DNA from: an uncultured Alphaproteobacteria bacterium
GTDB lineage: Bacteria; Pseudomonadota; Alphaproteobacteria; HIMB59; GCA-002718135
Direction of reading: 5' to 3'
Length of the DNA: 64,000 bases
Assembly (NCBI GenBank): GCA_902614395.1
Contig: CACMKW010000002.1
Coordinates: 3,356 to 67,355, forward strand
This document shows positions 8,317 through 34,386 of the stretch, piece after piece. The position numbers and the translations under genes are program-made. Position 1 is the first letter of the stretch; every line of letters begins with the position of its first letter. Under the pieces are notes generated by a model, which did not search any database, was not told the DNA's origin, and was given only the letters and a program-made list of their open reading frames with translations.

Positions 8317-9308
8317 AAAGATATAAATGCGCCATTATTGGTTACGGATATATGGGGAAAATCCGTCATAATGTAGTTAATAAAATTCCAAAACTTGATC
8401 TAAAATATATCATTGATGAAAATATAAATATTATTCCAAATAGCTATAAATACATAAAACTTAATAGTTATAAAGAATTAGACTTTGATAAGATTGATAT
8501 AATTTTTGTGTGTACCCCAAATAACATAAGTCCACTAATTATAAAAAAGGCATTAAAGTTTAATAAAAAAATTTTTTGTGAAAAACCTCCTGCAAGAAAT
8601 TTAAGAGATGTTGCAAATATAAGAAAATTAAAAAATTCCTCAACAAATTTAATGTTTGGTTTTAATCATCGCTTTCATCCAGCTATTGAAAAAGCAAAAA
8701 AACTTATTGACTCTAAAAAATTTGGTAAAGTTATTTCTCTTAGAGGTGTTTATGGTAAATCAGGTGGTATAAATTTTAAAAAATCATGGAGAAATAATAT
8801 TAAAATTTCAGGTGGCGGTATTCTTTTAGATCAAGGAATACATATGATAGATATCTTTAGGTTTTTCTGTGGTAATTTTGAAAAGATAAAATCCTTTCAA
8901 TCAAATATTTTTTGGAAATTTGATATTGAAGATAATGCATTTTTGATTTTAAAAAATAAAAATAATCAATTAGCAAGCTTGCATTCTTCATCGACATTAT
9001 GGAGACACACATTTAGAATAGATGTAACTTTGGAAAAAGGTTATTTTCTAGTTGAGGGTCTATTATCTAAAACAGGAAGTTATGGGCAAGAAAAAATTAC
9101 ATATGCACCTAGACAATTTGAAAATATTTCAAAAGCAATTGGTAACCCAACTGAAACAGTGGTTTACTATGATACTGATAATTCATGGCTTAACGAAGTA
9201 AAAGCTTTTTTAAAATTTATTGAAAATAAATCAAAAATTAAAATAAATAATATTGATGATGCTTATTCTGCTATGCAAATAGTAGATAAAGCATATAAGC
9301 AGGATTAA
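8313..9308 (+). CDS. Gfo/Idh/MocA family NAD(P)-dependent oxidoreductase
   Basis: N-terminal Rossmann CAIIGYGYMGKIRH and the family EKP motif (IFCEKPPA). 331 aa. Confidence 0.8.
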   Translation: MKRYKCAIIGYGYMGKIRHNVVNKIPKLDLKYIIDENINIIPNSYKYIKLNSYKELDFDKIDIIFVCTPNNISPLIIKKALKFNKKIFCEKPPARNLRDVANIRKLKNSSTNLMFGFNHRFHPAIEKAKKLIDSKKFGKVISLRGVYGKSGGINFKKSWRNNIKISGGGILLDQGIHMIDIFRFFCGNFEKIKSFQSNIFWKFDIEDNAFLILKNKNNQLASLHSSSTLWRHTFRIDVTLEKGYFLVEGLLSKTGSYGQEKITYAPRQFENISKAIGNPTETVVYYDTDNSWLNEVKAFLKFIENKSKIKINNIDDAYSAMQIVDKAYKQD

Positions 9309-9310
9309 TT

Positions 9311-9922
9311 ATGAAAAAAAAATATGTTGAAAGATATTTGGAGGAAGTTGCAAAAATTGCCAAAACAATTGACAAAAATAAAATTAATAAAGTTATAAAC
9401 AGATTAGTTAAACTAAGAAAAGAAAATGGAAGAGTTTTTTTTATTGGTGTTGGGGGCAGTGCTTCTAATTGCTCTCATGCTGTAAATGATTTTAGAAAGA
9501 TAGCTCAAATAGAATCTTACACACCTGTTGATAATGTTGCAGAATTAACAGCAAGGACAAATGATGAGGGTTGGGATACTGTGTTTTCAGCTTGGTTAGA
9601 GAGAAGTAGAGTTAATAAAAAAGATTTATTATTTGTTTTAAGTGTTGGTGGTGGTAATATTAAAAAAAATGTTAGTGTGAATTTAATTCATGCTATTAAT
9701 TATTCAATTAAGAAAAGATGTGATGTAGCTGGTATAATAGGTAGAGATGGTGGTTACGTTAATAAGAAAAGTAATTTATGTATACTTGTACCCTCCCAAT
9801 CAAACGATACAATTACTCCTCTTGCAGAATCTTGGCAATCTATAGTTTGGCATTTAATAGTTAGCGATCCAAGAATAATTAAATATTCTAATAAATGGGA
9901 ATTTCTTGATAAAATGAAATAA
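9311..9922 (+). CDS. SIS-domain sugar-phosphate isomerase (GmhA/phosphoheptose isomerase-like)
   Basis: GRVFFIGVGGSASNCSHAVNDFRK matches the GmhA-type G.GGS...A.H pattern. About 200 aa, typical for single-SIS isomerases. Confidence 0.75.
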   Translation: MKKKYVERYLEEVAKIAKTIDKNKINKVINRLVKLRKENGRVFFIGVGGSASNCSHAVNDFRKIAQIESYTPVDNVAELTARTNDEGWDTVFSAWLERSRVNKKDLLFVLSVGGGNIKKNVSVNLIHAINYSIKKRCDVAGIIGRDGGYVNKKSNLCILVPSQSNDTITPLAESWQSIVWHLIVSDPRIIKYSNKWEFLDKMK

Positions 9923-10674
9923 TGTTACTTTTAAAAAGGATTTTAAATAAAATAAAAAAAATCAATAAAAAACTTAAGAGAGTTTTCACTAATAAAATTT
10001 ATTACAATAATAGCTCTTTTAAACTGAGAGCAAATAACTGGATAACAAAATATAGATTTGATACATTTGAAAATAAAGAACCAGAAACTCTTAAATGGAT
10101 AGATAATAATTTAAGAGAAAATGATGTTTTTTTTGATGTAGGAGCAAATATTGGAATTTATTCTTTATATGCTGCCTCAAAAAAATTTAATAATTCTAAA
10201 ATTTATAGTTTTGAGCCAGAATATTCTAATTTAAATGAATTGAAGTTTAATGTTTTAAACAATGGTTTTACAAATAACATAAATATTTTTTCAATTGCTT
10301 TTGGGGAATTTAGCCATCTTTCTTTTTTGCAGATAAATGATATAACTCCCGGTGCAGCATTACACTATTTAAGTAATTCTAATGCTCCTTTATCTAGTAT
10401 TTCCGAGGGAGTTTTTGTGATGAAAATTGATGAGTTTTGTAATCAGCAAAATATTTTTCCTAATCTTATTAAAGTAGATATAGATGGAAATGAGGATAAA
10501 TTTTTAAATGGAGCTACAAATTTGCTTAAAAATAAAAATTTAAGATCGATAATAATTGAACTTGATGATAAACAAAACAGAGACAAATGTATCAGTATAA
10601 TTAAAAAAAATGGGTTTGATTTAATTGATAATTATAAAAGTAACCAATCTTTTATTTTTTCTAAAAAGAAATGA
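9922..10674 (+). CDS. FkbM family methyltransferase
   Basis: FFDVGANIGIYSLYAA (motif I), FEPE, and LIKVDIDGNEDKFLNG, typical of FkbM-type O-methyltransferases. Confidence 0.8.
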   Translation: MLLLKRILNKIKKINKKLKRVFTNKIYYNNSSFKLRANNWITKYRFDTFENKEPETLKWIDNNLRENDVFFDVGANIGIYSLYAASKKFNNSKIYSFEPEYSNLNELKFNVLNNGFTNNINIFSIAFGEFSHLSFLQINDITPGAALHYLSNSNAPLSSISEGVFVMKIDEFCNQQNIFPNLIKVDIDGNEDKFLNGATNLLKNKNLRSIIIELDDKQNRDKCISIIKKNGFDLIDNYKSNQSFIFSKKK

Positions 10675-10736
10675 ATTTAACAAACAATATAAAAAATGTT
10701 TAGATTAATTTATCCATAAGTTGTAATACCTATATT

Positions 10737-11495
10737 ATGAAATTAAATAATAAATTTAAAAATTTAAATAAAATCTATGGAGGTTGGTTATCCATAAACA
10801 ATTTTCAACTATGTGATATTTTATCTAACATGCAAATTGATTTTTTAGGTGTTGATTTGGAGCATACTCCTACTTCAATAGATCAATTTTTAAAATTTGT
10901 AACTATTTGTCATTCAAAAAAAATTAGTTGTTTGCCAAGAATTCCTGATTTAGATAATGCATTAATAAAGAGATTATTAGATTCAGGAGCAGATGGTGTT
11001 ATAGCTCCAAGTATAGAAAATGTTGAACAGATTGAATTTTTAGAAAATTCAATTTTTTATCCTCCTAATGGCTCCAGAGGATATGGAGTATCCAAAGCTT
11101 CTAATTATGGCTTAGCTTTTAATAAATATGTAAAAAATTGGAATAAAAATGCCGTATTAATTATTCAGATTGAATCTATTAAAGCTATAAAAAACTTGGA
11201 GTCTTTAATATCAAAAAAATGTGTGAGTGGAGTAATGATTGGACCTTATGATATTTCAGGTTCTTTAGGTATTCCAGGAGAATTAAGTCACCCAGAGGTA
11301 CTGAATGCTTGTAAAGAAATATTATCAATCTGCAAGAAATATAAAAAATCATGTGGAATACATGATACTGATCCAAATTCTAAGTCTTTAAAATTGCTAG
11401 ATAAAAATGGATATAATTTCATTGTTATTGGTTCAGATATTTTTTTATTAACCAAATGGGTTAATAGCATGAACAAACTATTAAATGAAAAGTGA
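10737..11495 (+). CDS. HpcH/HpaI family class II (pyruvate-dependent) aldolase
   Basis: 252 aa. LGVDLEHTP, IQIESIKAIKNLESL and MIGPYDISGSLG correspond to the metal/pyruvate-binding segments of HpaI/GarL/RhmA-type 2-keto-3-deoxy-acid aldolases. Confidence 0.8.
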   Translation: MKLNNKFKNLNKIYGGWLSINNFQLCDILSNMQIDFLGVDLEHTPTSIDQFLKFVTICHSKKISCLPRIPDLDNALIKRLLDSGADGVIAPSIENVEQIEFLENSIFYPPNGSRGYGVSKASNYGLAFNKYVKNWNKNAVLIIQIESIKAIKNLESLISKKCVSGVMIGPYDISGSLGIPGELSHPEVLNACKEILSICKKYKKSCGIHDTDPNSKSLKLLDKNGYNFIVIGSDIFLLTKWVNSMNKLLNEK

Positions 11496-12271
11496 ATAAA
11501 AACAACTATATAAAAAACTATTTTGATTTTTCTAATAAAACAGTTGTAATCACAGGAGGTTCTGGACATCTTTGTGGTGAGATGGCAACAACTTTTCTTA
11601 AACTTGGATCAACAGTATTTATATTAGATAAAAATATAAAAAAAATAGACAAAAAAAAATTTATAATTTTTAGAAATAAGATATTTTTTAAGAAAATTGA
11701 TTTAATTAATAAAAGTCAAATTAAAACTTCTCTAAAGTATATTTTAAATAAATCTAATAAGATTGATATTTTAATTAATGGAGCTGGAGCAAATTCCCCA
11801 AAAAGTTTTTTTGATATTACTGAAAAAGATTGGCAATTCGTAATTGATAGCCAACTAAAATCAACATTTTTATCTTGTCAAATTTTTGGTAAACAAATGA
11901 TAAAGCAAAAACATGGCAGTATATTAAATATAAGCTCAGCTTCTGCAGGCCCTCCATTATCAAAAGCATTTGCGTATTCTGCTGCAAAATCTGGAATAAA
12001 AAATTTAACACAAAATTTAGCTAGAGAGTGGGCTACTAAAGGTGTAAGAGTAAATGCTTTAAGGCCAGGTTTCTTTCCAACACGATGGAGTATGGAAAAT
12101 TTTATTGATAAACAAAGAAAAGAAAAAATTTTTCAACATACGCCTATGAAAAGATTTGGAAATCCGAAAGAATTGATCACCGCAGTATTGTTTATTTGTT
12201 CAGATAAATCAACTTTTCTTACTGGTAGTGAGATTGCTGTTGACGGAGGATTTGGAGCTATGACTATATGA
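11492..12271 (+). CDS. SDR family oxidoreductase
   Basis: VVITGGSGHLCGEMA cofactor motif, NGAG, catalytic YSAAKSG. GTG start in a GTGA overlap with the upstream stop. Confidence 0.85.
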   Translation: MNKNNYIKNYFDFSNKTVVITGGSGHLCGEMATTFLKLGSTVFILDKNIKKIDKKKFIIFRNKIFFKKIDLINKSQIKTSLKYILNKSNKIDILINGAGANSPKSFFDITEKDWQFVIDSQLKSTFLSCQIFGKQMIKQKHGSILNISSASAGPPLSKAFAYSAAKSGIKNLTQNLAREWATKGVRVNALRPGFFPTRWSMENFIDKQRKEKIFQHTPMKRFGNPKELITAVLFICSDKSTFLTGSEIAVDGGFGAMTI

Positions 12272-13023
12272 ATCAAGATAAAAGAGTAGTTTTGATAACT
12301 GGAGGATCTTCGGGAATTGGTTTCGAGATAGCTATTAAATATTTTGAAAATGATTGGAATGTTGTAATTTTAGGAAGAAAAAAATATAATTATTTTCCAA
12401 AATCAAAAAAATTTAAATTTGTAAAAGGCGATGTAATCAGTGAGAATTCTCATTTATTAACTGCAAAATCAGCTATTAAATTTTTTAACAGACTTGATTG
12501 TTATATAAATTGCGCAGGTATTTCTGAGTGGAAATCTATAGATAACGTAAATAGAAAATTTTGGGATAAAATAATTAATACTAATCTTTTAGGTACTATG
12601 TGGGGATGCAAAACTGCCTCAAATTTTCTTTCTAAAAATGGGTCAATTATTAACATTTCAAGTATTGCTGGGAAAAGAGGAAGTGCAAACAATTCTGTCT
12701 ATTGCGCATCTAAATTTGGAGTAAATGGAATAACGCAATCATTATCTAAAGAATTGGGTATAAAAAAAATAAGAGTTAATTCTGTTTGCCCTGTATATAT
12801 TAAAACAAAAGGTCTTGAAAACGCATTGAGACATAAAGTTTCTCCAACCAATGGTAAAAAAATCGATTCGTATTTAGAAAAATTTATAAGACAAAATTCA
12901 TCTCTTAAAAGTTTACCAACTAGTGAAGATGTCGCAAATTTTTGTTATTTCTTATCATCAGATAAAGCTAAATCAATTACCGGACAATGTTTAAATATTG
13001 ACTCCGGCGTCTTTCCTCAATGA
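12268..13023 (+). CDS. SDR family oxidoreductase (classical, FabG-like)
   Basis: VVLITGGSSGIGFE, NCAG, catalytic YCASKFG. 4-nt overlap with the upstream gene. Confidence 0.85.
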   Translation: MNQDKRVVLITGGSSGIGFEIAIKYFENDWNVVILGRKKYNYFPKSKKFKFVKGDVISENSHLLTAKSAIKFFNRLDCYINCAGISEWKSIDNVNRKFWDKIINTNLLGTMWGCKTASNFLSKNGSIINISSIAGKRGSANNSVYCASKFGVNGITQSLSKELGIKKIRVNSVCPVYIKTKGLENALRHKVSPTNGKKIDSYLEKFIRQNSSLKSLPTSEDVANFCYFLSSDKAKSITGQCLNIDSGVFPQ

Positions 13024-13793
13024 AGAAAGAAAAAATAGTAGCTATAATTCCATCAAGAATGGCATCAACTAGATTACCTGGAAAGCCATTATTGAAAATT
13101 TATAACTTAGAATTAATAGAGCACGTAAGAAGAAGAGCCTTGTTAAGTAAATTTTTTGATGAAGTATATGTTGCCACTTGTGATAGGGAAATTGCAAGTA
13201 TCGTTAAACAAAATAATGGTAAGGTAATCATGACATCAGACAAACATTTTGATTGCAATGAAAGAATATTAGAGGCTTCAAAAAAAATTAATGCAAAATT
13301 TATTGTAAATGTTCAGGGTGATGAAATACTAGTTCATCCTAAAAACTTAGATATGATATGCAAAACAATTGTAAAAGATAAGAAATCTATGTATTGGAAT
13401 GCGATTTCTAAAATAGAAGACAAAAAAGATTTAATAAACGATACAGTAGTTAAATGTTATATTTCAAAAAATAAAAATATATTATTCTGCTCAAGAAAAG
13501 AGGAAATTATAAAAAGAATAGATCCAAATATTCCAATTATGAAATTATTAGGACTTCAAGCTTTTAAAAAATCAGCTTTAAAAATTTATTCTAAGAACAA
13601 CATTACACCGTTAGAGAAAAATTTTTCAATTGGTCAAATGAGAATTTTAGAAAATAATCATAATTTAAAGTCTATTAATATAAAAAATGGATATAGGGGG
13701 ATTGATAAAAAAAGAGATATAATATATGCTAAAAACATATTAACTAGAGATAAAGAGCAAATAAAGATTTTAAATAAAATTATAAATCATTAA
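13020..13793 (+). CDS. KdsB-like cytidylyltransferase (CMP-3-deoxy-ulosonate synthetase family)
   Basis: IVAIIPSRMASTRLPGKPL and VNVQGDE closely follow the KdsB signature (IIPAR.ASTRLPGKPL / NVQGDEP), not the NeuA one. Confidence 0.8.
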   Translation: MKKEKIVAIIPSRMASTRLPGKPLLKIYNLELIEHVRRRALLSKFFDEVYVATCDREIASIVKQNNGKVIMTSDKHFDCNERILEASKKINAKFIVNVQGDEILVHPKNLDMICKTIVKDKKSMYWNAISKIEDKKDLINDTVVKCYISKNKNILFCSRKEEIIKRIDPNIPIMKLLGLQAFKKSALKIYSKNNITPLEKNFSIGQMRILENNHNLKSINIKNGYRGIDKKRDIIYAKNILTRDKEQIKILNKIINH

Positions 13794-13813
13794 TAAAATA
13801 AAATAAGTATTTT

Positions 13814-14494
13814 ATGGCAATTTTTTTAGACACAGGGAAAGTAGACGAAATCAAAAAGTACCATGATTATGGTATAATAAGAGGTGTGACTACCAATCCT
13901 TCTATACTAATAAAAGAGGGATTAGGAACAAATTTACAAGAATTAAAAAAAAAATTTATTGAAATTGCTGATTTGATAAATCCGCTTCCTTTATCTTTAG
14001 AAGTTACTTCAAATGAAACTTCTGAAATGTTTGAACAAGCAGAATTATTTGCAGGATGGGCTGATAATATTAACGTAAAAATCACAATTCACGGTCCTAA
14101 TGGTGAATTGAATAATTTAAAAGTTATAAATCAATTAGAAAACAAAAAAAATATCAGAGTAAATGTTACCGCTATGATGAGTGCACAGCAATGTTATCTT
14201 GCAGCTCAAGCTGGTGCAACTTATGTGTCTATTTTTGGAGGTAGAATTAATAATATGGGTTATGATTCAAATAAGGAAATATATATTTTAAGAAATTTAT
14301 TGGATAAATTTAATCTTAATTCTAAAATTATAGTTGGTTCTACTAGAGAAATTATTAATATAACTCAATGGCTAAATGCAGGTGCACATATAGTAACTTG
14401 TCATCCTAATTTTCTAGAGGGAATGCTGATCCATCCATATACAAAAGAAACTGTACAAATGTTTCTAAATGATGGAAATAAAATTAAAAAATAA
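13814..14494 (+). CDS. Short (type 3B) transaldolase / fructose-6-phosphate aldolase family protein
   Basis: 226 aa. FLDTG ... GVTTNPSIL N-terminus, the Schiff-base lysine region NVKIT, and the size fit FSA/TalC-type enzymes. Confidence 0.85.
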   Translation: MAIFLDTGKVDEIKKYHDYGIIRGVTTNPSILIKEGLGTNLQELKKKFIEIADLINPLPLSLEVTSNETSEMFEQAELFAGWADNINVKITIHGPNGELNNLKVINQLENKKNIRVNVTAMMSAQQCYLAAQAGATYVSIFGGRINNMGYDSNKEIYILRNLLDKFNLNSKIIVGSTREIINITQWLNAGAHIVTCHPNFLEGMLIHPYTKETVQMFLNDGNKIKK

Positions 14495-15436
14495 ATGATA
14501 AAAAAAAAAGTTTTAATTACAGGTGGTGCTGGTTTCGTTGGGTCACATCTTTGTGAAAGATTGTTAAAAAAAGGATACTTTGTTTATTGCCTTGATAATT
14601 TAGTTACTGGTAAGCTTCAAAATATTAATCATTTGATAAAACAACCAAACTTCGAATTAATACAAAAAAACATTAATGAGCCAATTAATTTAAAGGTTGA
14701 AGAAATTTACAACTTAGCTTCTCCCGCATCACCAAAGCATTATCAATTAGATCCTGTAGAAACTGTAAAGACAAATGTTCAAGGAGTTTTAAATTTATTA
14801 GAATTATCTAAAAGATATAATTCAAAAATTTTACAGGCATCAACTTCAGAGATTTATGGAGATCCTCTTGAGCATCCACAAAATGAAACTTATTGGGGGA
14901 ATGTTAACCCTATAGGTCCACGGAGTTGTTATGATGAAGGAAAAAGATGCGCAGAAACTCTCTTTTTTGATTTTCACAGACAGCATAAATTAAGAATAAA
15001 AGTTATGAGGATTTTTAATACATATGGTCCAAGAATGAATTTAGATGATGGAAGAGTGGTAAGTAATTTTATCATCCAAGCAATTAATAATGAAAATATT
15101 ACTATATATGGTGATGGAACTCACACACGAAGTTTTTGTTTTGTAGACGATTTAATTAATGGGATGATTTCTTTCTTTGATTGTGATGACAATTTTACTG
15201 GTCCTGTTAATGTAGGTAATCCAGAAGAGTACTCGATATTAGAGCTTGCTAGAAAAATAATTGATCTAACAAATTCAAAAAGTAAAATAGTTTTTTTAAA
15301 GTTACCAGATGATGATCCAAAAAAAAGAAAACCAAATATAAGTTTAGCTAAAGCAAAATTTAATTGGGAACCAACTACAAATTTAGAAAGTGGTCTTATT
15401 AAAACAATTCAATATTTTAGCAAAATTTTAAAATGA
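14495..15436 (+). CDS. UDP-glucuronate decarboxylase (UDP-xylose synthase, UXS/ArnA-C-domain-like)
   Basis: VLITGGAGFVGSHLCERL, QASTSEIYGDPLEHPQNETYWGNVNPIGPRSCYDEGKRCAETL and RIFNTYGPRM...DGRVVSNFI match the UXS consensus nearly residue for residue. Confidence 0.9.
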   Translation: MIKKKVLITGGAGFVGSHLCERLLKKGYFVYCLDNLVTGKLQNINHLIKQPNFELIQKNINEPINLKVEEIYNLASPASPKHYQLDPVETVKTNVQGVLNLLELSKRYNSKILQASTSEIYGDPLEHPQNETYWGNVNPIGPRSCYDEGKRCAETLFFDFHRQHKLRIKVMRIFNTYGPRMNLDDGRVVSNFIIQAINNENITIYGDGTHTRSFCFVDDLINGMISFFDCDDNFTGPVNVGNPEEYSILELARKIIDLTNSKSKIVFLKLPDDDPKKRKPNISLAKAKFNWEPTTNLESGLIKTIQYFSKILK

Positions 15437-16122
15437 AACTAAGTATAGTAATACCATGCTTTAATGAAGAAAATACAATTATAGATATATTAAAGCTAGT
15501 TAAAAAAAATCCTTATAAAGATATTGAAATTATAGTAGTGGATGATTTTTCTAAGGATAACACAAGGAAGATCCTCTCAGAAAATCGACAATATTATGAT
15601 GTCTTAGAATTACACGATCAAAATAGAGGTAAAGGTTCAGCTATAAGGACAGGTTTAAATAGAGTTTCTGGAGAAATAGTTTTAATTCAAGACGCAGATT
15701 TAGAATACGATCCTAACGAATATCTAGATCTATTGGGGCCAATTTTAAACAATAAAGCCGATGTTGTTTATGGATCAAGATTTCAGGGAGGTAAACCACA
15801 TAGAATTTTATATTTTTGGCATACTATAGGAAATAAATTTCTTACATTATTCTCAAATATGTTTACAAATTTGAATTTAACGGACATGGAATGCTGTTAT
15901 AAAGTATTTAGATCAGACATAATAAAAAAAATTAAATTAAAAGAAAATAGATTTGGTTTTGAACCTGAAGTTACAGCTAAAATAGCTAAGTTGAATTGCA
16001 GAATATATGAGGTTGGAGTTTCTTACTATGGCAGGACTTATAAAGAGGGTAAAAAAATAGGATGGAAAGATGGTATAAGTGCAATTATTTGTATAATTAA
16101 ATATGGAATATTTAGTAAATAA
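15433..16122 (+). CDS. GT2 polyprenyl-phosphate glycosyltransferase (DPM1/ArnC-like)
   Basis: LSIVIPCFNEE, VVDDFSKDNT, QDADLEYDP and GSRF are characteristic of the lipid-phosphate sugar synthase subgroup of GT2. Confidence 0.8.
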   Translation: MKLSIVIPCFNEENTIIDILKLVKKNPYKDIEIIVVDDFSKDNTRKILSENRQYYDVLELHDQNRGKGSAIRTGLNRVSGEIVLIQDADLEYDPNEYLDLLGPILNNKADVVYGSRFQGGKPHRILYFWHTIGNKFLTLFSNMFTNLNLTDMECCYKVFRSDIIKKIKLKENRFGFEPEVTAKIAKLNCRIYEVGVSYYGRTYKEGKKIGWKDGISAIICIIKYGIFSK

Positions 16123-17677
16123 AAAATTTTTTACACTTTTTTTTATACTAATTATGTTTTTCTTAATTTATTTTTTTCAAAATACAACAAACTATACAAA
16201 TTTTAAATTAAATTGGGATGAAGTAGATTATGCAAATGTAGCTTCTAAAGGAATAATAAATAATTATATTGATAGAGATAGTATAAGTTTTAAGACTTTT
16301 ACAGCAATTGGATTATCAAAATTTAAAAATAAAGAAGTATTTGTAGATAAAAATTTAACAGTATTAGAACATAATGATAATTTTAACTTAAGACATTTTC
16401 ATCCACCACTTCCAGTTTATTATTGGTCAATATTCACAAATGATAAAAATACTAATGAAATAAATGCTAGAAATCTTAGATTTAGTAATTTACTTTTATA
16501 CTTTGTTATATTTGTTTTTTTTACAATTTTTATTCATCTAAATTCTATAAATATAAAAAATTATTTTCTATCAACAAGTCTTTTATTTTTTTACTTAACT
16601 AATATTAATGTAATCGAATCATTTTTAAATTTACATTTTCATAATTTTTTTTCAATTATTTTTTTTTATCATATTTATTCAGTCATAATATATTTTAATG
16701 AAAAAAATGATGTATACTCAAGAGCAAATTTTACTTTTTCTATTTCACTTTTAATAATCACATTGGAAACATTTCCTATTGTATTAATAACAACAATTTT
16801 AATTTATTTATTATTTCCAATTAAGAATAAGAAAAAAATAAATTTATTTGAATTGATTAAAAATTTTGTTACTGCAATATTTATTGCTATAATTTTATTC
16901 CCATCCTCAATTGTTAAACTTACTTACCTAAAAACTTTTTTAATGTATTTTTATAGAATTTTTGCAAAAAATAATGAGGAATATAGTGAGATTAATTATT
17001 TGGATAATTGGAAAAATTTTTTCTTTGATAATCTTCTTGTTTTATTGGTAATAATTTTTGTTCTATCATTTTATCTTCTTAGAAATAAAATTGATAAAAA
17101 ATACTTAATATACTTCTTTTATATATTTGCTTACTCAATAATTATGACACCATTTATTTTATCATATACATATGTTTTTCCAGTTATTTTTATTTTTATT
17201 TGTTTAACCATCCAAATAATTAATAAAACAAAATTAAACAGTTATGAATTTGTATTATTATTATCTATTTTTGCGATTACAATATCTATAAATATTTTAG
17301 CAATTAATAGTAAAAATTATTACACTAACTTTCAGCTTTATAATAATAAAATTGATACTATTATTTCTGAATATTTAATTGATAAAAAAAATAAAAATAT
17401 ACTAATAGATGGCGCTCATATCTTTAATTATTATTCTGAAAATACGAATTTTATAAATCTAAATATAATGTCTTTAAGTAATCCTAGTTTTTATATAAGA
17501 AAAAATTACAAAAACATAAAAATTAATGAAAAAATTAAAAATAATTATTTTGATATGATTATTATTCAATCAAACAGAAGTTATACTGATGAAAAGATCA
17601 AGTTTCTTTATGACAGTGGTTACAAATCATTAGATAATTATGAAGGATATAATATATATAAATTAGATAATGGATAA
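16103..17677 (+). CDS. Polytopic membrane protein, probable GT-C glycosyltransferase (PMT/ArnT-like)
   Basis: 524 aa with 10 or more hydrophobic segments. The first loop after TM1 carries WDEVDYANV, resembling the DE(V)HF acidic motif of PMT/ArnT enzymes. The soluble C-terminal domain and the position directly after a lipid-P-sugar synthase also fit. Confidence 0.55.
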   Translation: MEYLVNKKFFTLFFILIMFFLIYFFQNTTNYTNFKLNWDEVDYANVASKGIINNYIDRDSISFKTFTAIGLSKFKNKEVFVDKNLTVLEHNDNFNLRHFHPPLPVYYWSIFTNDKNTNEINARNLRFSNLLLYFVIFVFFTIFIHLNSINIKNYFLSTSLLFFYLTNINVIESFLNLHFHNFFSIIFFYHIYSVIIYFNEKNDVYSRANFTFSISLLIITLETFPIVLITTILIYLLFPIKNKKKINLFELIKNFVTAIFIAIILFPSSIVKLTYLKTFLMYFYRIFAKNNEEYSEINYLDNWKNFFFDNLLVLLVIIFVLSFYLLRNKIDKKYLIYFFYIFAYSIIMTPFILSYTYVFPVIFIFICLTIQIINKTKLNSYEFVLLLSIFAITISINILAINSKNYYTNFQLYNNKIDTIISEYLIDKKNKNILIDGAHIFNYYSENTNFINLNIMSLSNPSFYIRKNYKNIKINEKIKNNYFDMIIIQSNRSYTDEKIKFLYDSGYKSLDNYEGYNIYKLDNG

Positions 17678-18503
17678 AAAAATTAATTTCTCTATTAATA
17701 TATGCTGTTTAAATTCAGAAAAATATTTAAATGAAACTATTCAAAGTGTTATTAATCAGTCGTATAAAAATTGGGAATTAATACTTGTTGATAATGGCTC
17801 AGATGATAATACTCATAATATTATAAATAATTATGTCAAAAAATATAAAAATATAAAAAGTTTTAATGAAAATAAAAAAGGTCTTTCTAACGCTAGAAAT
17901 TTAGCTGTTAAAAATTCTTCTTATGAATGGATAGTTTTATTAGACCACGATGACATAATGCATAAAGACAGACTTAAAATTCATTGCAATGATATAAGAA
18001 ATAATATTAACAAAATGTTTTTCTTTGGAGATGCAATGTTCTTCGATAATAATAATACGAAATTATATTCTCGTTTTGATATTGCTAGAAAAAAAGATAA
18101 CTTTGACCCTGTAAGATTAAATTTAAATAAAGTTGATGGGTATATAAACTTAACAAAATATGGATGTTTTATTGTTTCATCGACTGTTTGTTTTAATAAA
18201 AATATAATTAAAAAAATAGGGTGGTTTAATAACAAATACAAGTTTATATTAGATTATATTTTTTTTTTAAATGTTTCGAAGTTTTATGATTTCTATTGCT
18301 CTAATAAAATAATTTCAAGATGTAGAATACATGATGATCAATCAACTAACAAGTTAAAGAAAATATATTTTATTGAACTTAATAATTTATATTTTAGTTT
18401 TTATTTTAATACCAAAATATCATATTCAATTAAAATAAGTATTTTTATTAAGAATTTAAGATTAATATTTTCATATATAAAAACAAATACATTGTATATG
18501 TAA
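17670..18503 (+). CDS. GT2 family glycosyltransferase
   Basis: NQSYKNWELILVDNGSDDNT and LLDHDD (DxD). Confidence 0.85.
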   Translation: MDKKINFSINICCLNSEKYLNETIQSVINQSYKNWELILVDNGSDDNTHNIINNYVKKYKNIKSFNENKKGLSNARNLAVKNSSYEWIVLLDHDDIMHKDRLKIHCNDIRNNINKMFFFGDAMFFDNNNTKLYSRFDIARKKDNFDPVRLNLNKVDGYINLTKYGCFIVSSTVCFNKNIIKKIGWFNNKYKFILDYIFFLNVSKFYDFYCSNKIISRCRIHDDQSTNKLKKIYFIELNNLYFSFYFNTKISYSIKISIFIKNLRLIFSYIKTNTLYM

Positions 18504-18535: not shown

Positions 18536-20038
18536 ATGAAATCAATAAATAATCAAAATACAATTAACTTATTCTTTATTTTTATTTTTAATATTATATT
18601 TCATTTTATTCCATTTGAAAGATCAATTATTTCACCTGATACGTTTTCTTTTTTTAGTAATGAAAAACTTGGCATATTAAATTTTTTATATAATCCAGAT
18701 AGACCCATTGAATTTATTATTCATGAGTTAGAATATTATTTTTTAAACTATAATTTTAATTATCATTTTTATTATTTAATTTTTTCAACAATATTCTTAA
18801 ATGTAATTATTTATTTTTTTTTTGAAAATTTCTTTAAAAAAGATCAATCACTTTTATTATCTTTGCTATTTTCAATATTGCCTTTTAAAATAGAGATATA
18901 TCACTCTTCTATATATGCTTGGATAAATATTATAGAATCTATCTATATTTTAAGTATTCTACTATTTATTAAATATACAAAAAATAAAGTAAATTTATTT
19001 TATATTATTTCAATTTTTTTATTTTTTATTTCTGTATTGGGTCGTGAAAGTGGTATTTTTTTACCCATAGCATTATTTATATTTATTATATTATTTATAA
19101 AACCAATTAATATTTTTAGTTCATTTATTTTAATCATTCCTTATATTTCAATCATTCTATTTAGTTTTATACTAAGAATTACAGGTGGTTTTTTTCATAC
19201 AGATAATATGGGAAGAAATATTGATATTCAAAATATACCCTCAGGTTTCTATGATATTTTTAATATTTTTTTAGGTAGATATTTGTTTAAAAATATTATT
19301 TATGGATTGTATCAATTTATTAATATTCCTTATTTCTTAATATTAATTTTTTTACTAATAAATATATTAATAATTATATTGTTCTCATTTAAATATTTAA
19401 AATTAAACTCATTAAAAATAGATTTTAACAAAAAAATTTTTATGTTTTTTTTATCAATATTTATTTTATCTTTAATACCTAACCTTATTGCAGGTAGCAT
19501 TGGTGGAAGAAATACAATCATTGCTTCACTTTTTATTTCTTTAGTTTTTCTTTACTTAATTAAATATCTAAATAAATATATTAGTATAATAATAATTTTT
19601 ATAACAATTATTATAAATCAAGGTAATGCATATACACATGTACTTTCATTAAGATTGGCTTCAAGTGTATACAGTTACCTTGATGCAAATCAAAAAATTT
19701 TAAATAATTATGATAATATTGTTATTGATACTAATGATTTTTCAAAAAATATAGAATTTACATTAGTGACAAATAAATACAATGTATTGAATACATATTA
19801 TGGTGCACAAACATTTGAAGATTGGGGTTTAGACGCAATGGTTAATTTAAATCTTGATCAAAAAAATACTTATATTTCTTCTGGAGGTATTAAAAAAACT
19901 GATACTTTTCATAAAATATTAATTTATCAAAAAATCGGTTATAATAAATTTACTGAAAAAGAAATACTTTTGCCCGTTGATAATACATTTATAATAAATT
20001 ATGAGAAAGTTTTTAAAAATAATTTAGAAAAAAGGTAA
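18536..20038 (+). CDS. Polytopic membrane protein (second GT-C-like candidate, or polymerase/ligase-like)
   Basis: 500 aa, about 11 hydrophobic segments followed by a C-terminal soluble domain of about 130 aa. No diagnostic motif recognised. Confidence 0.45.
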   Translation: MKSINNQNTINLFFIFIFNIIFHFIPFERSIISPDTFSFFSNEKLGILNFLYNPDRPIEFIIHELEYYFLNYNFNYHFYYLIFSTIFLNVIIYFFFENFFKKDQSLLLSLLFSILPFKIEIYHSSIYAWINIIESIYILSILLFIKYTKNKVNLFYIISIFLFFISVLGRESGIFLPIALFIFIILFIKPINIFSSFILIIPYISIILFSFILRITGGFFHTDNMGRNIDIQNIPSGFYDIFNIFLGRYLFKNIIYGLYQFINIPYFLILIFLLINILIIILFSFKYLKLNSLKIDFNKKIFMFFLSIFILSLIPNLIAGSIGGRNTIIASLFISLVFLYLIKYLNKYISIIIIFITIIINQGNAYTHVLSLRLASSVYSYLDANQKILNNYDNIVIDTNDFSKNIEFTLVTNKYNVLNTYYGAQTFEDWGLDAMVNLNLDQKNTYISSGGIKKTDTFHKILIYQKIGYNKFTEKEILLPVDNTFIINYEKVFKNNLEKR

Positions 20039-21043: not shown

Positions 21044-21931
21044 GTGAATAAAGAAATCCAAATTTCTATAATTATTCCAACTTATAATAGAAAAGAAAAA
21101 GTATGTAATCTAATTAATAGCTTATTACTTCAAATTAATAAAAATTTTGAAATTATAATTGTAGATGATGGAAGTACTGATAACACTTATGATGCATTAC
21201 GTGTTTATAGTAATCATAATAATATTTCATCCTATAGGATTTTAAATTCTGAGAGAGGAGCAGCAAGGAATTATGGTGCATCTTTAGCAAGAGGAAAATA
21301 TCTAAATTTTTTTGATTCGGATGATATAGCGTTAGAAAATCATACTAAGATTGCTTCATCTAAAATATTAGAATTAAATAATCCTCCATTATTTAATCTT
21401 TCATACGCTTATAAGTTTGATAATAAAATTAAAAACATAATTCTATCTGGCAAAATTAATAATAAAATTTTTTCTAACAATATAGTTAGCTGCAATGGTA
21501 TATTTATTAGAAAAGATATATTTGAAAAAAATAAATTTTCTGAAAATAGAGACTTATCTGGATCAGAAGATTGGCATCTCTGGATAAGATTAGCTAGTCA
21601 ATATGAAATTTTTTCTTTTAAAGAAATTACGACTTATATAATTGATAATGAAAACCGAAGTATGAAAACACAATCACTTAAGCAAGTAAAAAAAAGGATA
21701 GATATATTATTAAAATATGTAAATAATGATTTAAAAAAAAATATTAAATTTATAAATTTATGTAAAATTAATTCCGAATTGTATTCATTTATATCGATGA
21801 CAGCAAGTTTTTACAAAAATGAAAAATTGATATCTTTTAAATATCTAGTTAAAGCAATTTTTTCTTATCCATTGATTTTATTTAGTAGACGATCAATAGT
21901 TTTATATTATAGATTATTTTTTAGATGGTAA
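21044..21931 (+). CDS. GT2 family glycosyltransferase
   Basis: ISIIIPTYNRKE, IIIVDDGSTDNT, FFDSDD. GTG start. Confidence 0.85.
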   Translation: MNKEIQISIIIPTYNRKEKVCNLINSLLLQINKNFEIIIVDDGSTDNTYDALRVYSNHNNISSYRILNSERGAARNYGASLARGKYLNFFDSDDIALENHTKIASSKILELNNPPLFNLSYAYKFDNKIKNIILSGKINNKIFSNNIVSCNGIFIRKDIFEKNKFSENRDLSGSEDWHLWIRLASQYEIFSFKEITTYIIDNENRSMKTQSLKQVKKRIDILLKYVNNDLKKNIKFINLCKINSELYSFISMTASFYKNEKLISFKYLVKAIFSYPLILFSRRSIVLYYRLFFRW

Positions 21932-22842
21932 ATATTTTATTCACAGGAGGTGCAGGTTTTATTGGTAGCTCAATTATTGATAAGCTTAATAAGAAAAAAT
22001 ATAATATTTATGTAGTTGATAACTTGTTAACTGGTAAATATAAAAATATTCCTCTAGGTAAAAGGGTAAAATTCTTAAAAATAAATGTTAATGATAAAAA
22101 AAAACTAATCAAATCAACGAATAAATTATCTATTGATTATATTTTTCATTTTGCTGCTTGTGTTGGCGTCAAAAGAACATTAAAAAATCCACTTAAAGTA
22201 TTAGAAGATATTGATGGATTTAAAAATATTTTATATTTAGCAAGATTTAAAAAAGTAAAAAGAGTATTTTTTTCATCATCATCAGAGGTGTATGGGGAAG
22301 GACAAGGATTAGCACAGAATGAAGAAAAAACACCTCTAAATTCAAGACTTCCTTATGCTATTGTCAAAAATGTGGGTGAGTCTTTTTTTAAAACATATAA
22401 AAACGAATATAATATAAATTATACAATTTTTCGTTTGTTTAATACCTATGGCCCTAAACAATCTAGTGATTTTGTTGTTTCACAATTTTTAAAAAATGCT
22501 CTAAAAAATAAAGATATAAATATTTATGGTAATGGACAACAAAGTAGAACCTTTTGTTATATTGATGATACAGTAGAAGCAATTATAAATTGTTTTGAAA
22601 AAAATTATTTTATAAACAGTACAGTAAATATTGGTAATAATAAAGTTACTAAAATTATTGATTTGGCAAAAATAATAAAAAAAATAACTAGATCAAATTC
22701 AAAAATTAAAAAAATAGAACCTTTAAAGGAAGGAGATATGTTGAGAAGAAAACCAGATATAAAAAAAATGAAATCAGTTTTAAACAGAAGATTTACATCT
22801 CTTGAAAAAGGACTTTATAGTATATTAAAAGAATATGAATAA
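21925..22842 (+). CDS. NAD-dependent nucleotide-sugar epimerase/dehydratase (extended SDR)
   Basis: ILFTGGAGFIGSS, SSSSEVYG, catalytic YAIVKNVGE, RLFNTYGP. Confidence 0.85.
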   Translation: MVNILFTGGAGFIGSSIIDKLNKKKYNIYVVDNLLTGKYKNIPLGKRVKFLKINVNDKKKLIKSTNKLSIDYIFHFAACVGVKRTLKNPLKVLEDIDGFKNILYLARFKKVKRVFFSSSSEVYGEGQGLAQNEEKTPLNSRLPYAIVKNVGESFFKTYKNEYNINYTIFRLFNTYGPKQSSDFVVSQFLKNALKNKDINIYGNGQQSRTFCYIDDTVEAIINCFEKNYFINSTVNIGNNKVTKIIDLAKIIKKITRSNSKIKKIEPLKEGDMLRRKPDIKKMKSVLNRRFTSLEKGLYSILKEYE

Positions 22843-23788
22843 ATTTAATAAATATAAAATAAGAATTATAATTCCAGTTTTTAATGATAATATTTCTTTA
22901 AATATTTTAATAAAAAATATTTATGAACAGGCTGATAAACACGATTATTTTTTTGAAATATTAATTATAGATGATAATTCTAATAAAGAAATTTTTATAA
23001 AATCTGCATCTTCATACAATGACAGGTTGCATATAAATATATTAAAAAATAAACAAAATTTAGGACATCAAAAGTCTATTTTTATGGGCTTAAATTATAC
23101 TCTAACAAATCCAATTGATAAAATCATAGTTATGGATTCTGATGGAGAAGATAATCCTAGCTATTTGCACAAACTTATAGAAGAAAATTTAAATATAAAA
23201 TCAAATATTGTAGCTAAACGTATAAAAAGAAAAGAGAGCTTAATTTTTATTTTGTTTTATTCAATATATAAATTGATATTTTCCATGTTAACAGGTTATA
23301 ATTTAAATTTTGGAAATTTTTCAATTATTAATTTCGATTCTGTTCAAAAAATTTTAAATGTAGAAAATAATTTCAATCATTACTCAGCTTCACTTTTAAA
23401 AGTAGATAAAAATATACACAAAATACCGATTCCAAAAAATAATAGATATGAAGGTAAATCAAAAATGAGTTTTATTAGATTAATTACCCATGGTTTAGAT
23501 GCAATATCTATTTTCAGAAAAGAAGCGATTATAAGAGTTATAATCTTTTCTATAATAAGTGAAATAATATTGTTATTAATTGCTCTAATTATTTTTTATA
23601 TGAGATTTTTTAGTAGTTTATTAATAACTGGACAAACAACTACAGTACTTTTCTTTTTGATAGTCATAGGTTTTGTGTTTATTGTTTTATGTTTAATGCT
23701 TTCACTTTCTTTAAACTTTAATATTAATCCAGATATAAATAATAAAATATATAAAAATTATTTAGATAAGATAAAGAAGGTAATTTAA
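22835..23788 (+). CDS. GT2 polyprenyl-phosphate glycosyltransferase with two C-terminal TM helices (GtrB/ArnC-like)
   Basis: IIIPVFNDN, ILIIDDNSNKE, VMDSDGEDNP, then the hydrophobic segments VIIFSIISEIILLLIALIIFY and TTTVLFFLIVIGFVFIVLCLMLSL. Confidence 0.8.
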   Translation: MNKFNKYKIRIIIPVFNDNISLNILIKNIYEQADKHDYFFEILIIDDNSNKEIFIKSASSYNDRLHINILKNKQNLGHQKSIFMGLNYTLTNPIDKIIVMDSDGEDNPSYLHKLIEENLNIKSNIVAKRIKRKESLIFILFYSIYKLIFSMLTGYNLNFGNFSIINFDSVQKILNVENNFNHYSASLLKVDKNIHKIPIPKNNRYEGKSKMSFIRLITHGLDAISIFRKEAIIRVIIFSIISEIILLLIALIIFYMRFFSSLLITGQTTTVLFFLIVIGFVFIVLCLMLSLSLNFNINPDINNKIYKNYLDKIKKVI

Positions 23789-24666
23789 ATTTTAGTTTGA
23801 AAAATATTATTTTTTCTATCATTATTTATTAATTTAAACTTATTATTCTTTAAAAGTTTTACAATACTTTTATTTGAAATTGGTTTATCATATTTTGCAA
23901 ATAATCCATCAAGTGTATCTAAGACTGACCATTTTTCATGCATTTTTTTTGATAATTCTAATTTTCCTTCATAACTCCATATCGGAATAAAAATATCAGA
24001 AATAAAATATGAATTTAAAAATAATCTTCTAACAAAATTTTTTACTTTTAAAAGCCAACTTATGTTTTTAATTAAAAATTTTTTTACACTTTCGTAAGTA
24101 AAAAAAAATTTAAATAAAGGTCGCCAGATTAAGTATTTGGGGTGAAAATATCCTAATTTTGGCATTTTATATACATCAAAAAAAACAAATCCCTTAGGAT
24201 CAACAAAAGAGTGGATTTTTTTGATAGTTTCTTTTGGGTTTGGTGTATGTTGTATCACACCTCTACAAATAACGATATCAAACTTAGTTTTAAAATCCAG
24301 ATTCATCAAATCAGATTTAATTAAAATTAAATTTTTATTTTTCTTTGACACATTGTAAAATATAGCTGAGGATAGATCAACAGATACACATAATTTACTA
24401 GATTTCACTAAGTACTCTGTAAATCTCCCAGCACCACATCCTATTTCTAAAATAGTTTTGTCGTTAAGTATACTCATTTGATTAAATAAAATTCTATTTA
24501 AAAACTTAAATGATATGTTATTTTTATTTAAACTATCAATTTGAACATTTTGAAAATCTTTCCATTGCTTTCCAAAATTTGACGTATAATTGTCACTCTT
24601 ATCAAAAATATATACACCTTCTTTAAGTATAAAATTTTTTTTAGAAAATAAATTATTAATCTCCAT
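23785..24666 (-). CDS. Class I SAM-dependent methyltransferase
   Basis: ILEIGCGAGRFTEYL motif I and DIVICRGVIQH. It is the only minus-strand gene in the island, and its stop overlaps the upstream gene's stop (TTAA). Confidence 0.75.
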   Translation of the reverse strand: MEINNLFSKKNFILKEGVYIFDKSDNYTSNFGKQWKDFQNVQIDSLNKNNISFKFLNRILFNQMSILNDKTILEIGCGAGRFTEYLVKSSKLCVSVDLSSAIFYNVSKKNKNLILIKSDLMNLDFKTKFDIVICRGVIQHTPNPKETIKKIHSFVDPKGFVFFDVYKMPKLGYFHPKYLIWRPLFKFFFTYESVKKFLIKNISWLLKVKNFVRRLFLNSYFISDIFIPIWSYEGKLELSKKMHEKWSVLDTLDGLFAKYDKPISNKSIVKLLKNNKFKLINNDRKNNIFQTKI

Positions 24667-31077: not shown

Positions 31078-31088
31078 TATTATTAATT

Positions 31089-31646
31089 ATGCTAAATATT
31101 AAGACATATTTTGATGGCTCTATTAAATTAATAAATTCTCAATTGTTCAAAGATAGCAGAGGTTTTTTTACTGAATCTTATAATTATAATTTTTTTAGAA
31201 AAAACTTCAAAGTATCGGATAGATTTGTTCAGGATAATATATCTTTTTCAAGAAAAAAAAACACAATCAGAGGAATGCATTTACAATTGCCGCCTTTTTC
31301 TCAGTCAAAATTAGTCAGTGTGTTGAGTGGTTCCATATTAGATTATTTTGTTGATATGCGAAAAAGTTCGAAAACTTTTGGTTTATATGGATATGTTCAT
31401 TTAAATTCAAAAAAAAATCAATATTTATATATAAAAAAAGGATTTGCACATGGTTTTAAAACTTTAGAAGATAATACAACTGTTTTTTATAAAGTATCAA
31501 ATTATTATTCAAAAAAACACGAAATAACTCTAAATTTCAAAGATAAGCATATTAATATAGATTGGCAATTAAATAATTCAAAACCAAATCTTTCTAAAAA
31601 AGATTTACAAGCTGATAATTTTGATAAAATAATTAAATTTTTATGA
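31089..31646 (+). CDS. rmlC: dTDP-4-dehydrorhamnose 3,5-epimerase
   Basis: DSRGFFTESY, RGMHLQ, GFAHGF. 185 aa. Confidence 0.85.
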   Translation: MLNIKTYFDGSIKLINSQLFKDSRGFFTESYNYNFFRKNFKVSDRFVQDNISFSRKKNTIRGMHLQLPPFSQSKLVSVLSGSILDYFVDMRKSSKTFGLYGYVHLNSKKNQYLYIKKGFAHGFKTLEDNTTVFYKVSNYYSKKHEITLNFKDKHINIDWQLNNSKPNLSKKDLQADNFDKIIKFL

Positions 31647-34382: not shown

Positions 34383-34386
34383 TCAA

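Follow-up and report, generated by a model that had tools for sequence, protein, structure and literature searches.

At positions 14495-17677 of the 64-kb window analysed here (the whole 64,000-nucleotide stretch of contig CACMKW010000002.1), three plus-strand genes follow one another with overlapping ends. They encode, in order, a 313-amino-acid (aa) UDP-glucuronate decarboxylase, or UDP-xylose synthase (UXS; 14495-15436), a 229-aa family 2 glycosyltransferase (GT2) predicted to be a polyprenyl-phosphate sugar synthase (15433-16122), and a 524-aa polytopic membrane protein that models as a glycosyltransferase of the GT-C fold (16103-17677). Together the three probably decorate the cell envelope from outside, possibly with xylose. 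They lie in a low-GC block, hereafter the island, with 18-28% GC from position 1 to about 37.8 kb and 28-35% in the sequence beyond. The coordinates of all three open reading frames (ORFs) were confirmed, and the overlapping starts and stops described in an earlier sequence-only reading of this DNA are as given there: the UXS stop overlaps the GT2 start by 4 bp (ATGA at 15433-15436), and the GT2 gene overlaps the 524-aa gene by 20 bp. Upstream, an aldolase gene ends at 14494 and UXS begins at 14495 (TAAATG junction). The MEY start of the 524-aa protein is common to two homologues (P0001 and P0002). Judged by the match of the first product to human UXS1, the number of GT2 homologues and the size of the 524-aa family, these are real genes and not chance ORFs.

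The best PDB relatives of the first product were four human UXS1 entries (4gll, E=1.4e-113), with GalE-like proteins (3e-40) and the ArnA decarboxylase domain (about 1e-21) as runners-up, and pairwise alignment with human UXS1 gave 54% identity over 310 aa (E=1e-131). Because no NCBIfam model was passed by the protein, the assignment rests on PDB comparison. A Rossmann GxxGxxG motif (GGAGFVGS, residues 9-16) is present and the Thr/Tyr/Lys triad is kept. The active site of human UXS1 is defined by Thr118, Ser119, Glu120, Tyr147, Lys151 and Arg277 (PMC3438964), and all six residues are retained here as T117, S118, E119, Y146, K150 and R278. The UXS-specific members of this set, Ser119, Glu120 and Arg277, close the site and prevent release of a 4-keto-pentose; ArnA releases that compound, whereas a true UXS reduces the keto intermediate to UDP-xylose (PMC3438964). 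By these comparisons the protein is a genuine UXS with predicted decarboxylase activity, as the sequence-only reading had held with high confidence, and its product should be UDP-xylose because the UXS-specific E119 and R278 are intact. A 4-keto-pentose, which the same reading had offered as one possible cargo, is unlikely given the retained Glu119 and Arg278. A literature search on UXNAcS gave nothing useful for telling UXS from a UDP-GlcNAcA decarboxylase.

In Pfam, the second product matches the generic Glycos_transf_2 model alone (5.8e-33). The NCBIfam models that extend beyond its nucleotide-binding half are AglJ (residues 3-225), ArnC (2-207), PpgS (5-208; E=3.3e-16) and a haloarchaeal dolichyl-phosphate hexose transferase (9-202), and the PDB entries that align through the acceptor half are Pyrococcus dolichol-phosphate mannose synthase (DPMS; 5mlz, 1-197) and ArnC (9hwj, 2-205; 3.8e-12). 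All other GT2 families align over residues 1 to about 110 only. With full-length matches solely to polyprenyl-phosphate glycosyltransferases, membership of the Dpm1/ArnC/AglJ-like clade is supported at the sequence level, in agreement with the DPM1/ArnC type proposed previously, and the protein is best described as a putative polyprenyl-phosphate sugar synthase of Dpm1/AglJ/PpgS-like character. It falls outside every named equivalog because all scores are far below the curated cutoffs (AglJ 112 versus 325 bits, ArnC 63 versus 529, PpgS 59 versus 370). A DxD-type motif, Q86-D87-A88-D89-L90-E91-Y92-D93-P94 (DADL(Q/E)xxP type), is invariant in 22 orthologues. The conserved C-terminus (GRTYxEGKKIGWKDG) runs into a short hydrophobic or amphipathic tail (GWKDGxxAIxCIxKY) that contains no transmembrane (TM) helix and may serve as a membrane-interface element. 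The C-terminal TM helices of the GtrB, ArnC and archaeal DPMS types are absent; TM-less members do exist in the polyprenyl-phosphate clade, the PpgS model comprising 226 positions. The family is very large, with more than 8000 homologous database clusters at E<=1e-20, many of them 65-68% identical; cyanobacteria and Nitrospirota are among their sources. When Bacteroidota and Proteobacteria are taken in as well, identity is 55-68%.

The third product has no Pfam (E<=0.01), NCBIfam or PDB sequence match. An exact database look-up returned no record, and a profile of 14 family sequences found no match in the PDB. A word-indexed search recovered 14 relatives, and an exhaustive profile search 611 clusters (50% identity) at E<=1e-3, 161 of them at <=1e-30. 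Across 70 diverse members of this family, D39, R97, H100 and H180 are invariant and E40, D42, Y43, H98, P267 and Y284 are at least 90% conserved; E222, K277, Y282 and E293 are additionally invariant in a closer set of relatives. Two conserved motifs stand in the predicted first periplasmic loop. One, W38-D39-E40-V41-D42-Y43 (codons at 16214-16231, plus strand), is the predicted catalytic acidic motif, and its conservation across the family agrees with the earlier reading, in which WDEVDY in the first external loop resembled the PMT/ArnT acidic motif. The other, R97-H98-F99-H100-P101-P102, is an RHxHPP motif (codons at 16391-16408, plus strand).

An AlphaFold2 model of the 524-aa protein, computed from the family alignment, had a predicted local distance difference test (pLDDT) of 85.9 and a predicted template modelling score (pTM) of 0.87. 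When this model was compared with the PDB by Foldseek, ranks 1-23 were all GT-C enzymes (DPY19, STT3/oligosaccharyltransferase (OST), AftA, Pmt4, Pmt1/2, AglB, AftB and ALG3). The best E-value was 8e-4 and TM-scores reached 0.52, with probabilities of 0.8-1.0 for the top 16; MurJ, WaaL and transporters came after the GT-Cs, at probability <=0.1. The protein models as a GT-C of an unclassified family, with sugar transfer as its predicted chemistry, and a transporter or polymerase fold was rejected on the occurrence of GT-Cs at all of the top 23 ranks. At the profile level, PMT_2 (PF13231) is matched by 19 of the 70 distant family members (best 1.2e-11), and a 70-sequence family profile aligned with ArnT (5ezm) at E=0.0057 over residues 100-394. 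Through this link the 524-aa protein, which has no PMT_2 match of its own, would be distantly related to PMT_2/ArnT. The PMT/ArnT-like GT-C enzyme foreseen in the sequence-only reading is upheld in fold, while its tie to ArnT and PMT_2 is a distant one.

Topology was deduced from how hydrophobic the modelled helices are and from where Lys and Arg residues fall. We predict 11 TM helices with a cytoplasmic N terminus, K7/K8 at the N terminus and KNKKK in the 238-247 loop serving as inside markers. The helical first periplasmic loop, of about 90 residues, carries both WDEVDY and RHFHPP, the former about 9 residues past the first hydrophobic helix. The second periplasmic loop holds K277, Y282, Y284 and E293, and the C-terminal ~100 residues form an alpha/beta domain predicted to lie outside. 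All conserved polar residues are on the periplasmic face of the predicted topology. A first-loop acidic motif just after TM1 is where other GT-Cs have their catalytic Asp/Glu; in GT136, where D31, E34, Y35, H106, H174 and R349/Y350 are essential (PMC11127046), the counterpart by position would be D31/E34/Y35.

Gene neighbourhoods were compared in two samples. A GT-C-anchored sample comprised 17 genome and 8 metagenome loci with relatives of the 524-aa protein, whose ORFs were compared with the proteins of the window, and a GT2-anchored sample comprised 80 metagenome loci (L032-L111), 51 of which had at least 1.2 kb of upstream sequence. A GT2 orthologue (42-64% identical) adjoins, or lies within 2 kb of, a GT-C homologue in six lineages: Pelagibacteraceae (the clade of the window and a second metagenome-assembled genome, MAG), SAR86 (a single-cell genome), Prochlorococcus (three genomes), Flexibacter, Cytophagales (a MAG) and an unassigned contig with the order GT2-methyltransferase-GT-C. 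The remaining Bacteroidota loci have no such GT2 within 8 kb of the GT-C, and the neighbours there are housekeeping genes (Lon, photolyase, superoxide dismutase, transporters). The 229-aa-type GT2 and a class I methyltransferase are the sole recurrent partners of the GT-C. Considered with the assignments of the two proteins, this co-occurrence indicates that the GT2 very probably makes the lipid-phosphate sugar that the GT-C consumes.

The GT2 family is far broader than the GT-C family. A hidden Markov model of the 524-aa family found 0 matches in the 80 GT2-anchored loci, where a large polytopic protein lies within 600 bp of the GT2 in 26. Those recognised by Pfam contained PMT_2 (4), STT3/AglB (1) or GT87 (1), and also Wzy_C (2), besides a few unrelated membrane proteins. 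GtrA adjoins the GT2 in five loci (L020, L034, L036, L045 and L048). In a locus from the cyanobacterium Woronichinia (L026, 4106-8490) the GT2 orthologue stands beside a 590-aa DUF8201 protein and a 552-aa protein with no Pfam match. Class I S-adenosylmethionine (SAM)-dependent methyltransferases are the commonest small neighbours of the GT2 (8 of 96 GT2 neighbours in L032-L111), and one lies between the GT2 and the GT-C in L005 (6514-9593), which hints that the lipid-linked or transferred sugar is methylated in some lineages.

UXS accompanies the GT2 in a minority of loci, and the company it keeps there is telling, in that these are Gtr-like sets. In the SAR86 locus (L020, 7962-11552), GT-C, UXS (60%), GT2 (64%) and GtrA genes, in that order, lie outside any polysaccharide cluster, among genes for a nitroreductase, a GMC oxidoreductase and an acetyltransferase, and the sole other glycosyltransferase is a GT2-domain ORF (11679-12845) beyond GtrA. 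A short metagenome contig (L048) has, in order, GtrA, UXS (60%) and GT2 and no other glycosyltransferase. Thermodesulfovibrionales loci (L029, 1836-4494, and L030) combine UXS (64%) and GT2 (65%) with an LPG_synthase_TM (MprF flippase-like) protein, and in L043 a UXS gene (61%) overlaps that of the GT2. Altogether, five or six independent lineages have UXS immediately ahead of the GT2 in the same orientation, which, judged without a formal background, is far more than expected for a gene present at most in single copy. The GT-C frame of L020 is broken, with a 370-aa ORF and similarity continuing to 9452, as in an assembly error or a pseudogene, and the Cytophagales GT-C copy in L013 is likewise split (175 + 340 aa).

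From these data we propose the following scheme. UXS, identified from its sequence and active-site residues, would convert cytoplasmic UDP-glucuronate to UDP-alpha-D-xylose. The peripheral, TM-less GT2 would then load a sugar from its nucleotide-activated form onto polyprenyl (undecaprenyl) phosphate at the inner membrane face; the recurrent linkage with UXS makes UDP-xylose the most likely donor, and the product would be polyprenyl-P-beta-xylose, because GT2 enzymes invert. The lipid-linked sugar would next be flipped to the periplasmic face, a step for which relatives of the module use GtrA or an LPG_synthase_TM-domain protein. There the GT-C is predicted to bind it in a periplasmic site made up of D39/E40/D42/Y43, R97/H98/H100, H180, E222, K277/Y282/Y284 and E293, and to transfer the sugar with inversion to a periplasmic acceptor, as its modelled fold and topology suggest. 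GT2 and GT-C enzymes are both inverting. If the cargo is xylose, the series would run from UDP-alpha-D-Xyl through polyprenyl-P-beta-D-Xyl to an alpha-xyloside. Since the GT-C sits among housekeeping genes in other phyla, the acceptor is less likely to be a strain-specific O-unit than some conserved part of the envelope, be it lipid A/core, a different lipid or glycan, or a protein.

How firmly the cargo can be named is a separate matter, and we put the probability that it is xylose at roughly 45%. A neutral pentose had been proposed in the sequence-only reading; of its two candidates xylose is plausible, although UXS is found in 3 of the 80 loci, and the 4-keto-pentose has been discounted above. 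Several observations weigh against xylose. UXS is near the GT2 in no more than those three loci, directly upstream in 2, and the Prochlorococcus, Flexibacter, Cytophagales and cyanobacterial loci contain no UXS in the sequence examined. UXS-linked GT2s are scattered over a neighbour-joining tree of the GT2 family and form no single clade, so that a xylose-specific clade was not found, and a family at 55-67% identity may share one common donor other than UDP-xylose. Nearly all island genes abut or overlap their neighbours, and because tight packing is the rule throughout the island, the overlaps within the window say little about a functional link. Two other soluble GT2s of the island (17670-18503 and 21044-21931) could consume UDP-xylose, and a second GT2/GT-C set, described below, leaves the pairing of synthase and GT-C ambiguous within the window. 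No clear UDP-glucose 6-dehydrogenase that would feed UXS was seen in the window, whose only nucleotide-sugar dehydrogenase (36556-37779) is TviB-like (UDP-GlcNAc 6-dehydrogenase type; 408 bits, below cutoff). Searches of the 64 kb by tblastn for homologues of GtrA, LPG_synthase_TM and small flippases, including the SMR type, found none (best GtrA E=1.9); the flippase is either encoded elsewhere or not recognisable. Finally, we found no description of undecaprenyl-phosphate xylose (Und-P-Xyl) or of polyprenyl- or dolichyl-phosphate xylose in the literature, a search whose incomplete coverage makes it weak evidence of novelty.

Many of these points would be accommodated if the lipid-carrier logic were the same but the cargo another sugar, a common hexose or N-acetylhexosamine used as the one donor family-wide, with UXS feeding the cytoplasmic glycosyltransferases of the island. 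The size and conservation of the GT2 family (>8000 homologues, 55-68% identity across phyla) are what such a shared donor would lead one to expect. The GT2 is moreover mostly without a UXS neighbour, its commonest small neighbours are class I methyltransferases rather than sugar-nucleotide enzymes, the island has further glycosyltransferases to take up UDP-xylose (the GT2s at 17670-18503 and 21044-21931, and GT4s that occur further downstream in the Pfam and NCBIfam scans), and overlapping genes are its rule. However, a UXS reserved for unrelated glycosyltransferases sits poorly with its position just ahead of the GT2 gene, in the same orientation, in five or more separate lineages, and with its inclusion in L020 and L048 in minimal GtrA/GT2(/GT-C) sets that have few or no other glycosyltransferases. 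We regard a different cargo as possible but doubtful.

The island also holds what is, by fold and homology, a second and parallel lipid-carrier glycosylation module, of which neither the GT-C nor the lipid-phosphate GT2 had figured in the sequence-only reading. A 500-aa membrane protein (18536-20038, plus strand), with no Pfam match, gave an AlphaFold2 model (pLDDT 86.6, pTM 0.89) whose top 19 Foldseek matches are all STT3, PglB, AftA, ArnT or DPY19, so that it too is predicted to be a GT-C; hhalign showed no relationship between the two GT-C families of the island (probability 40%). A 317-aa GtrB/ArnC-like GT2 with a C-terminal membrane segment (22835-23788, plus strand) is a second predicted polyprenyl-phosphate sugar synthase, with NCBIfam matches to ArnC (1.5e-15) and PgfS (1.3e-14), both over residues 8-286, and PDB matches to a GtrB homologue (5ekp, 6.5e-11) and ArnC (9bhc, 8.6e-11). 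Before it lies an extended short-chain dehydrogenase/reductase (SDR) of 305 aa (21925-22842, plus strand; Pfam Epimerase), 35% identical to the island UXS, whose best PDB matches are UXS1 (1e-41) and then GalE-like proteins. Alignment shows SSSSEVYG and RRKPDI, that is, the UXS-type Ser-Ser-Glu and Arg are kept. Together with the TviB-like dehydrogenase, this SDR might decarboxylate UDP-GlcNAcA and so supply a second pentose-type cargo such as XylNAc. The paired arrangement of the second module recurs in other SAR11 contigs, the pair of SDR and 317-aa GT2 being found in L001, L021 and the P0010 contig.

The presence of two lipid-phosphate-type GT2s and two GT-Cs in one island invites a crossed assignment, in which UDP-xylose would undergo another conversion, such as 4-epimerisation to UDP-L-arabinose through the SDR at 21925-22842, before being loaded by the GT2 at 22835-23788 for the GT-C at 18536-20038, leaving another sugar to the 229-aa GT2 and 524-aa GT-C. 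The natural substrate of ArnC has the L-arabino configuration, as this scheme would have it, and the pair of SDR and 317-aa GT2 is itself conserved (L001, L021, P0010 contig). Yet L021 and the P0010 contig, where UXS is missing from the locus, have a set of SDR, 308-aa GT2 and membrane protein too, and the 305-aa SDR has the decarboxylase-type Glu and Arg, not the Ser and Thr typical of epimerases. Across phyla, moreover, it is the 229-aa GT2 and the 524-aa GT-C that travel together, and it is with that GT2 that UXS is found. The crossed assignment is consequently improbable, and the pairing of the 229-aa GT2 with the 524-aa GT-C is favoured because of this cross-phylum synteny.

Very improbable, in our view, is a division of labour in which the 229-aa protein is an ordinary cytoplasmic GT2 that extends an undecaprenyl-diphosphate glycan and the 524-aa GT-C an oligosaccharyltransferase or ligase of the preassembled oligosaccharide. 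STT3/OST does stand beside DPY19 among the best structural matches, and the GT2 reaches the curated cutoff for none of the named lipid-phosphate synthases. Against this, the acceptor half of the GT2 aligns solely with lipid-phosphate synthases; GtrA, a partner for lipid-monophosphate sugars, recurs beside it; stand-alone sets of GT2 and GT-C, with or without GtrA, occur with neither an initiating phosphoglycosyltransferase nor a Wzx flippase; and the sequence link of the GT-C is to PMT_2/ArnT, users of monosaccharide-phosphate-lipid donors. That the 524-aa protein is no glycosyltransferase at all but a transporter, a Wzy-like polymerase or a structural membrane protein is highly improbable, since the missing Pfam, NCBIfam and PDB sequence matches and the modest Foldseek values (best E 8e-4, TM-scores 0.4-0.5) are set against top 23 structural matches that are all GT-C, transporters and WaaL at probability <=0.1, invariant acidic and His/Arg residues that cluster GT-C-like in periplasmic loops, and PMT_2 matches by family members.

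Gtr systems consist of a GtrA flippase, a GtrB polyprenyl-phosphate glucosyltransferase and a GtrC-type or GT-C transferase, with Gram-positive counterparts in CsbB/GtcA/YfhO and GacI/GacL. The proposed module shares their logic, in that a GT2 would load a monosaccharide on polyprenyl phosphate and a polytopic GT-C use it outside, and relatives of the module carry GtrA. It differs in a GT2 without TM helices where GtrB has two, in a GT-C of an unclassified family, in the lack of a GtrA found in the window, and in an embedded, dedicated UXS that suggests a pentopyranose cargo undescribed for such systems. The sequence-only reading had taken the Arn pathway as its template. The lipid-carrier GT2/GT-C architecture of that analogy stands, with a UDP-glucuronate decarboxylase, a GT2 lipid-phosphate synthase and a PMT_2-type GT-C in the same succession, but the closest match is to the three-component Gtr system rather than to Arn. 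The decarboxylase of the module is a true UXS by its residues, whereas ArnA releases a 4-keto-pentose. In line with the earlier reading, Pfam and NCBIfam scans of the island ORFs found no ArnB (DegT-type) aminotransferase, no ArnA formyltransferase domain and no ArnD deformylase, nor ArnE/F; a class V aminotransferase at 37772-39019 is encoded beyond the block, on the opposite strand. An Arn system proper was rejected, its defining accessory enzymes not having been found.

Three further systems invite comparison. In the pentofuranose systems described by Kelly et al. 2024 (PMC11127046), a polyprenyl phosphoribose donor built from phosphoribosyl pyrophosphate (PRPP) is used with a MATE flippase and the GT-C enzyme GT136. 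By description and residue pattern, GT136 resembles the 524-aa protein in having 11 TM helices, a first periplasmic domain that is helical, a further periplasmic domain at the C terminus and a similar set of essential residues (Asp/Glu/Tyr after TM1, His near 100 and 175, and a later basic residue and Tyr), and it adds a pentose outside the cytoplasm from a lipid-phosphate donor, as proposed for the module. The sugars there are furanoses and the donor is PRPP-derived, whereas the donor enzyme of the module would be a GT2 acting on a UDP-sugar; neither a PRPP-dependent polyprenyl phosphoribose synthase nor a MATE flippase was found among the island ORFs scanned. Polyprenyl phosphoribose synthase is a UbiA-type prenyl-phosphate phosphoribosyltransferase. 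In mycobacteria, PpgS (Rv3631)/Rv3779 and methylthioxylose (MTX) capping likewise use a small soluble or peripheral GT2 (~226-240 aa) to make a polyprenyl-phosphate sugar for a GT-C. The GT2 of the module scores far below the PpgS cutoff (59 versus 370 bits), and the mycobacterial sugars are GalNAc and methylthioxylose, handled by other GT-C families in another phylum. With the PMT and PMT_2 enzymes (GT39/GT83) the 524-aa protein shares an Asp-Glu motif in the first external loop followed by HPP(L), and Pmt1/2 and Pmt4 are among its structural matches, but it is shorter, lacks the MIR domain, has another C-terminal domain and shows no PMT_2 match of its own at E<=0.01.

No bacterial clade is more abundant in the ocean than SAR11. 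That two unannotated membrane proteins of a SAR11 island appear to be GT-Cs paired with lipid-phosphate sugar synthases gives a concrete model of envelope modification outside the cytoplasm. Lipid-carrier glycosylation of the Gtr/Arn type is already known; the GT-C family here is an unclassified one, and the lipid-linked sugar is possibly new. With xylose as its cargo, the module would be the first lipid-linked pentopyranose route of the Gtr/Arn type to be fed by a UDP-sugar and a GT2, and it would define a new GT-C family that spans marine and freshwater phyla with about 600 clusters (50% identity). A larger generalisation can be drawn, which we consider unlikely: a widespread and unrecognised pathway, present in SAR11, SAR86, Prochlorococcus, Bacteroidota, Nitrospirota and cyanobacteria, in which UXS, a TM-less GT2, a flippase and diverse GT-Cs would add (alpha-)xylose in the periplasm, via polyprenyl-phosphate-xylose, to some conserved part of the envelope. 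A new GT-C (CAZy) family would then be founded by the 524-aa protein, and SAR11 would have a second, parallel pentose module, perhaps with the UXS-like decarboxylase and TviB-like dehydrogenase.

The setting of the module is a glycan island of marked compositional bias. GC content reaches its minimum, about 18%, at 16-20 kb, exactly over both GT-C genes. ORFs of at least 100 aa in the block are all on the plus strand and packed end to end, except 23785-24666 and one nested ORF. To the right of the block, core proteins cluster at 90% identity with entries that, where named, read 'Pelagibacteraceae bacterium', which makes the host a bacterium of SAR11 type. Published descriptions of hypervariable region 2 (HVR2) list glycosyltransferases, methyltransferases, sugar-nucleotide enzymes and unannotated membrane proteins (PMC3448164), and the content of the block does match them. 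Scans of the 64-kb window for tRNAs and with Rfam found no tRNA or rRNA gene, and none marking the block boundary, so we do not equate the block with classical HVR2. Megablast of the flanking DNA against phage genomes gave no match, and the island ORFs that were scanned included no recognisable Wzx-type flippase or O-antigen ligase.

Other parts of the island point to further glycan chemistry. Directly upstream of the module, 8313-14494 is occupied by contiguous genes that may serve synthesis of an unusual CMP-activated keto-deoxy (ulosonic-type) sugar. The first encode a Gfo/Idh/MocA oxidoreductase, a GmhA-like SIS isomerase, an FkbM methyltransferase and an HpcH/HpaI-type aldolase, and the remainder two classical SDRs, a KdsB-like cytidylyltransferase and an FSA/TalC-type aldolase. 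A related contig (L001) additionally has a cupin, a class III aminotransferase and an Ldh_2 dehydrogenase beside the ulosonic-type gene set. Two adjacent proteins of about 580 aa without a Pfam match are encoded at 4820-6565 and 6565-8316. Further downstream, a single 767-aa ORF (27875-30178) carries a GT2 domain at its N terminus and a GT4-like domain at its C terminus, with a multi-helix membrane region between the two. It is followed at 30187-35460 by a dTDP-rhamnose-type block (RmlD-like, RmlC, RmlB-like, RmlD-like and RmlA) and then a membrane protein of the EpsG family, a possible polymerase.

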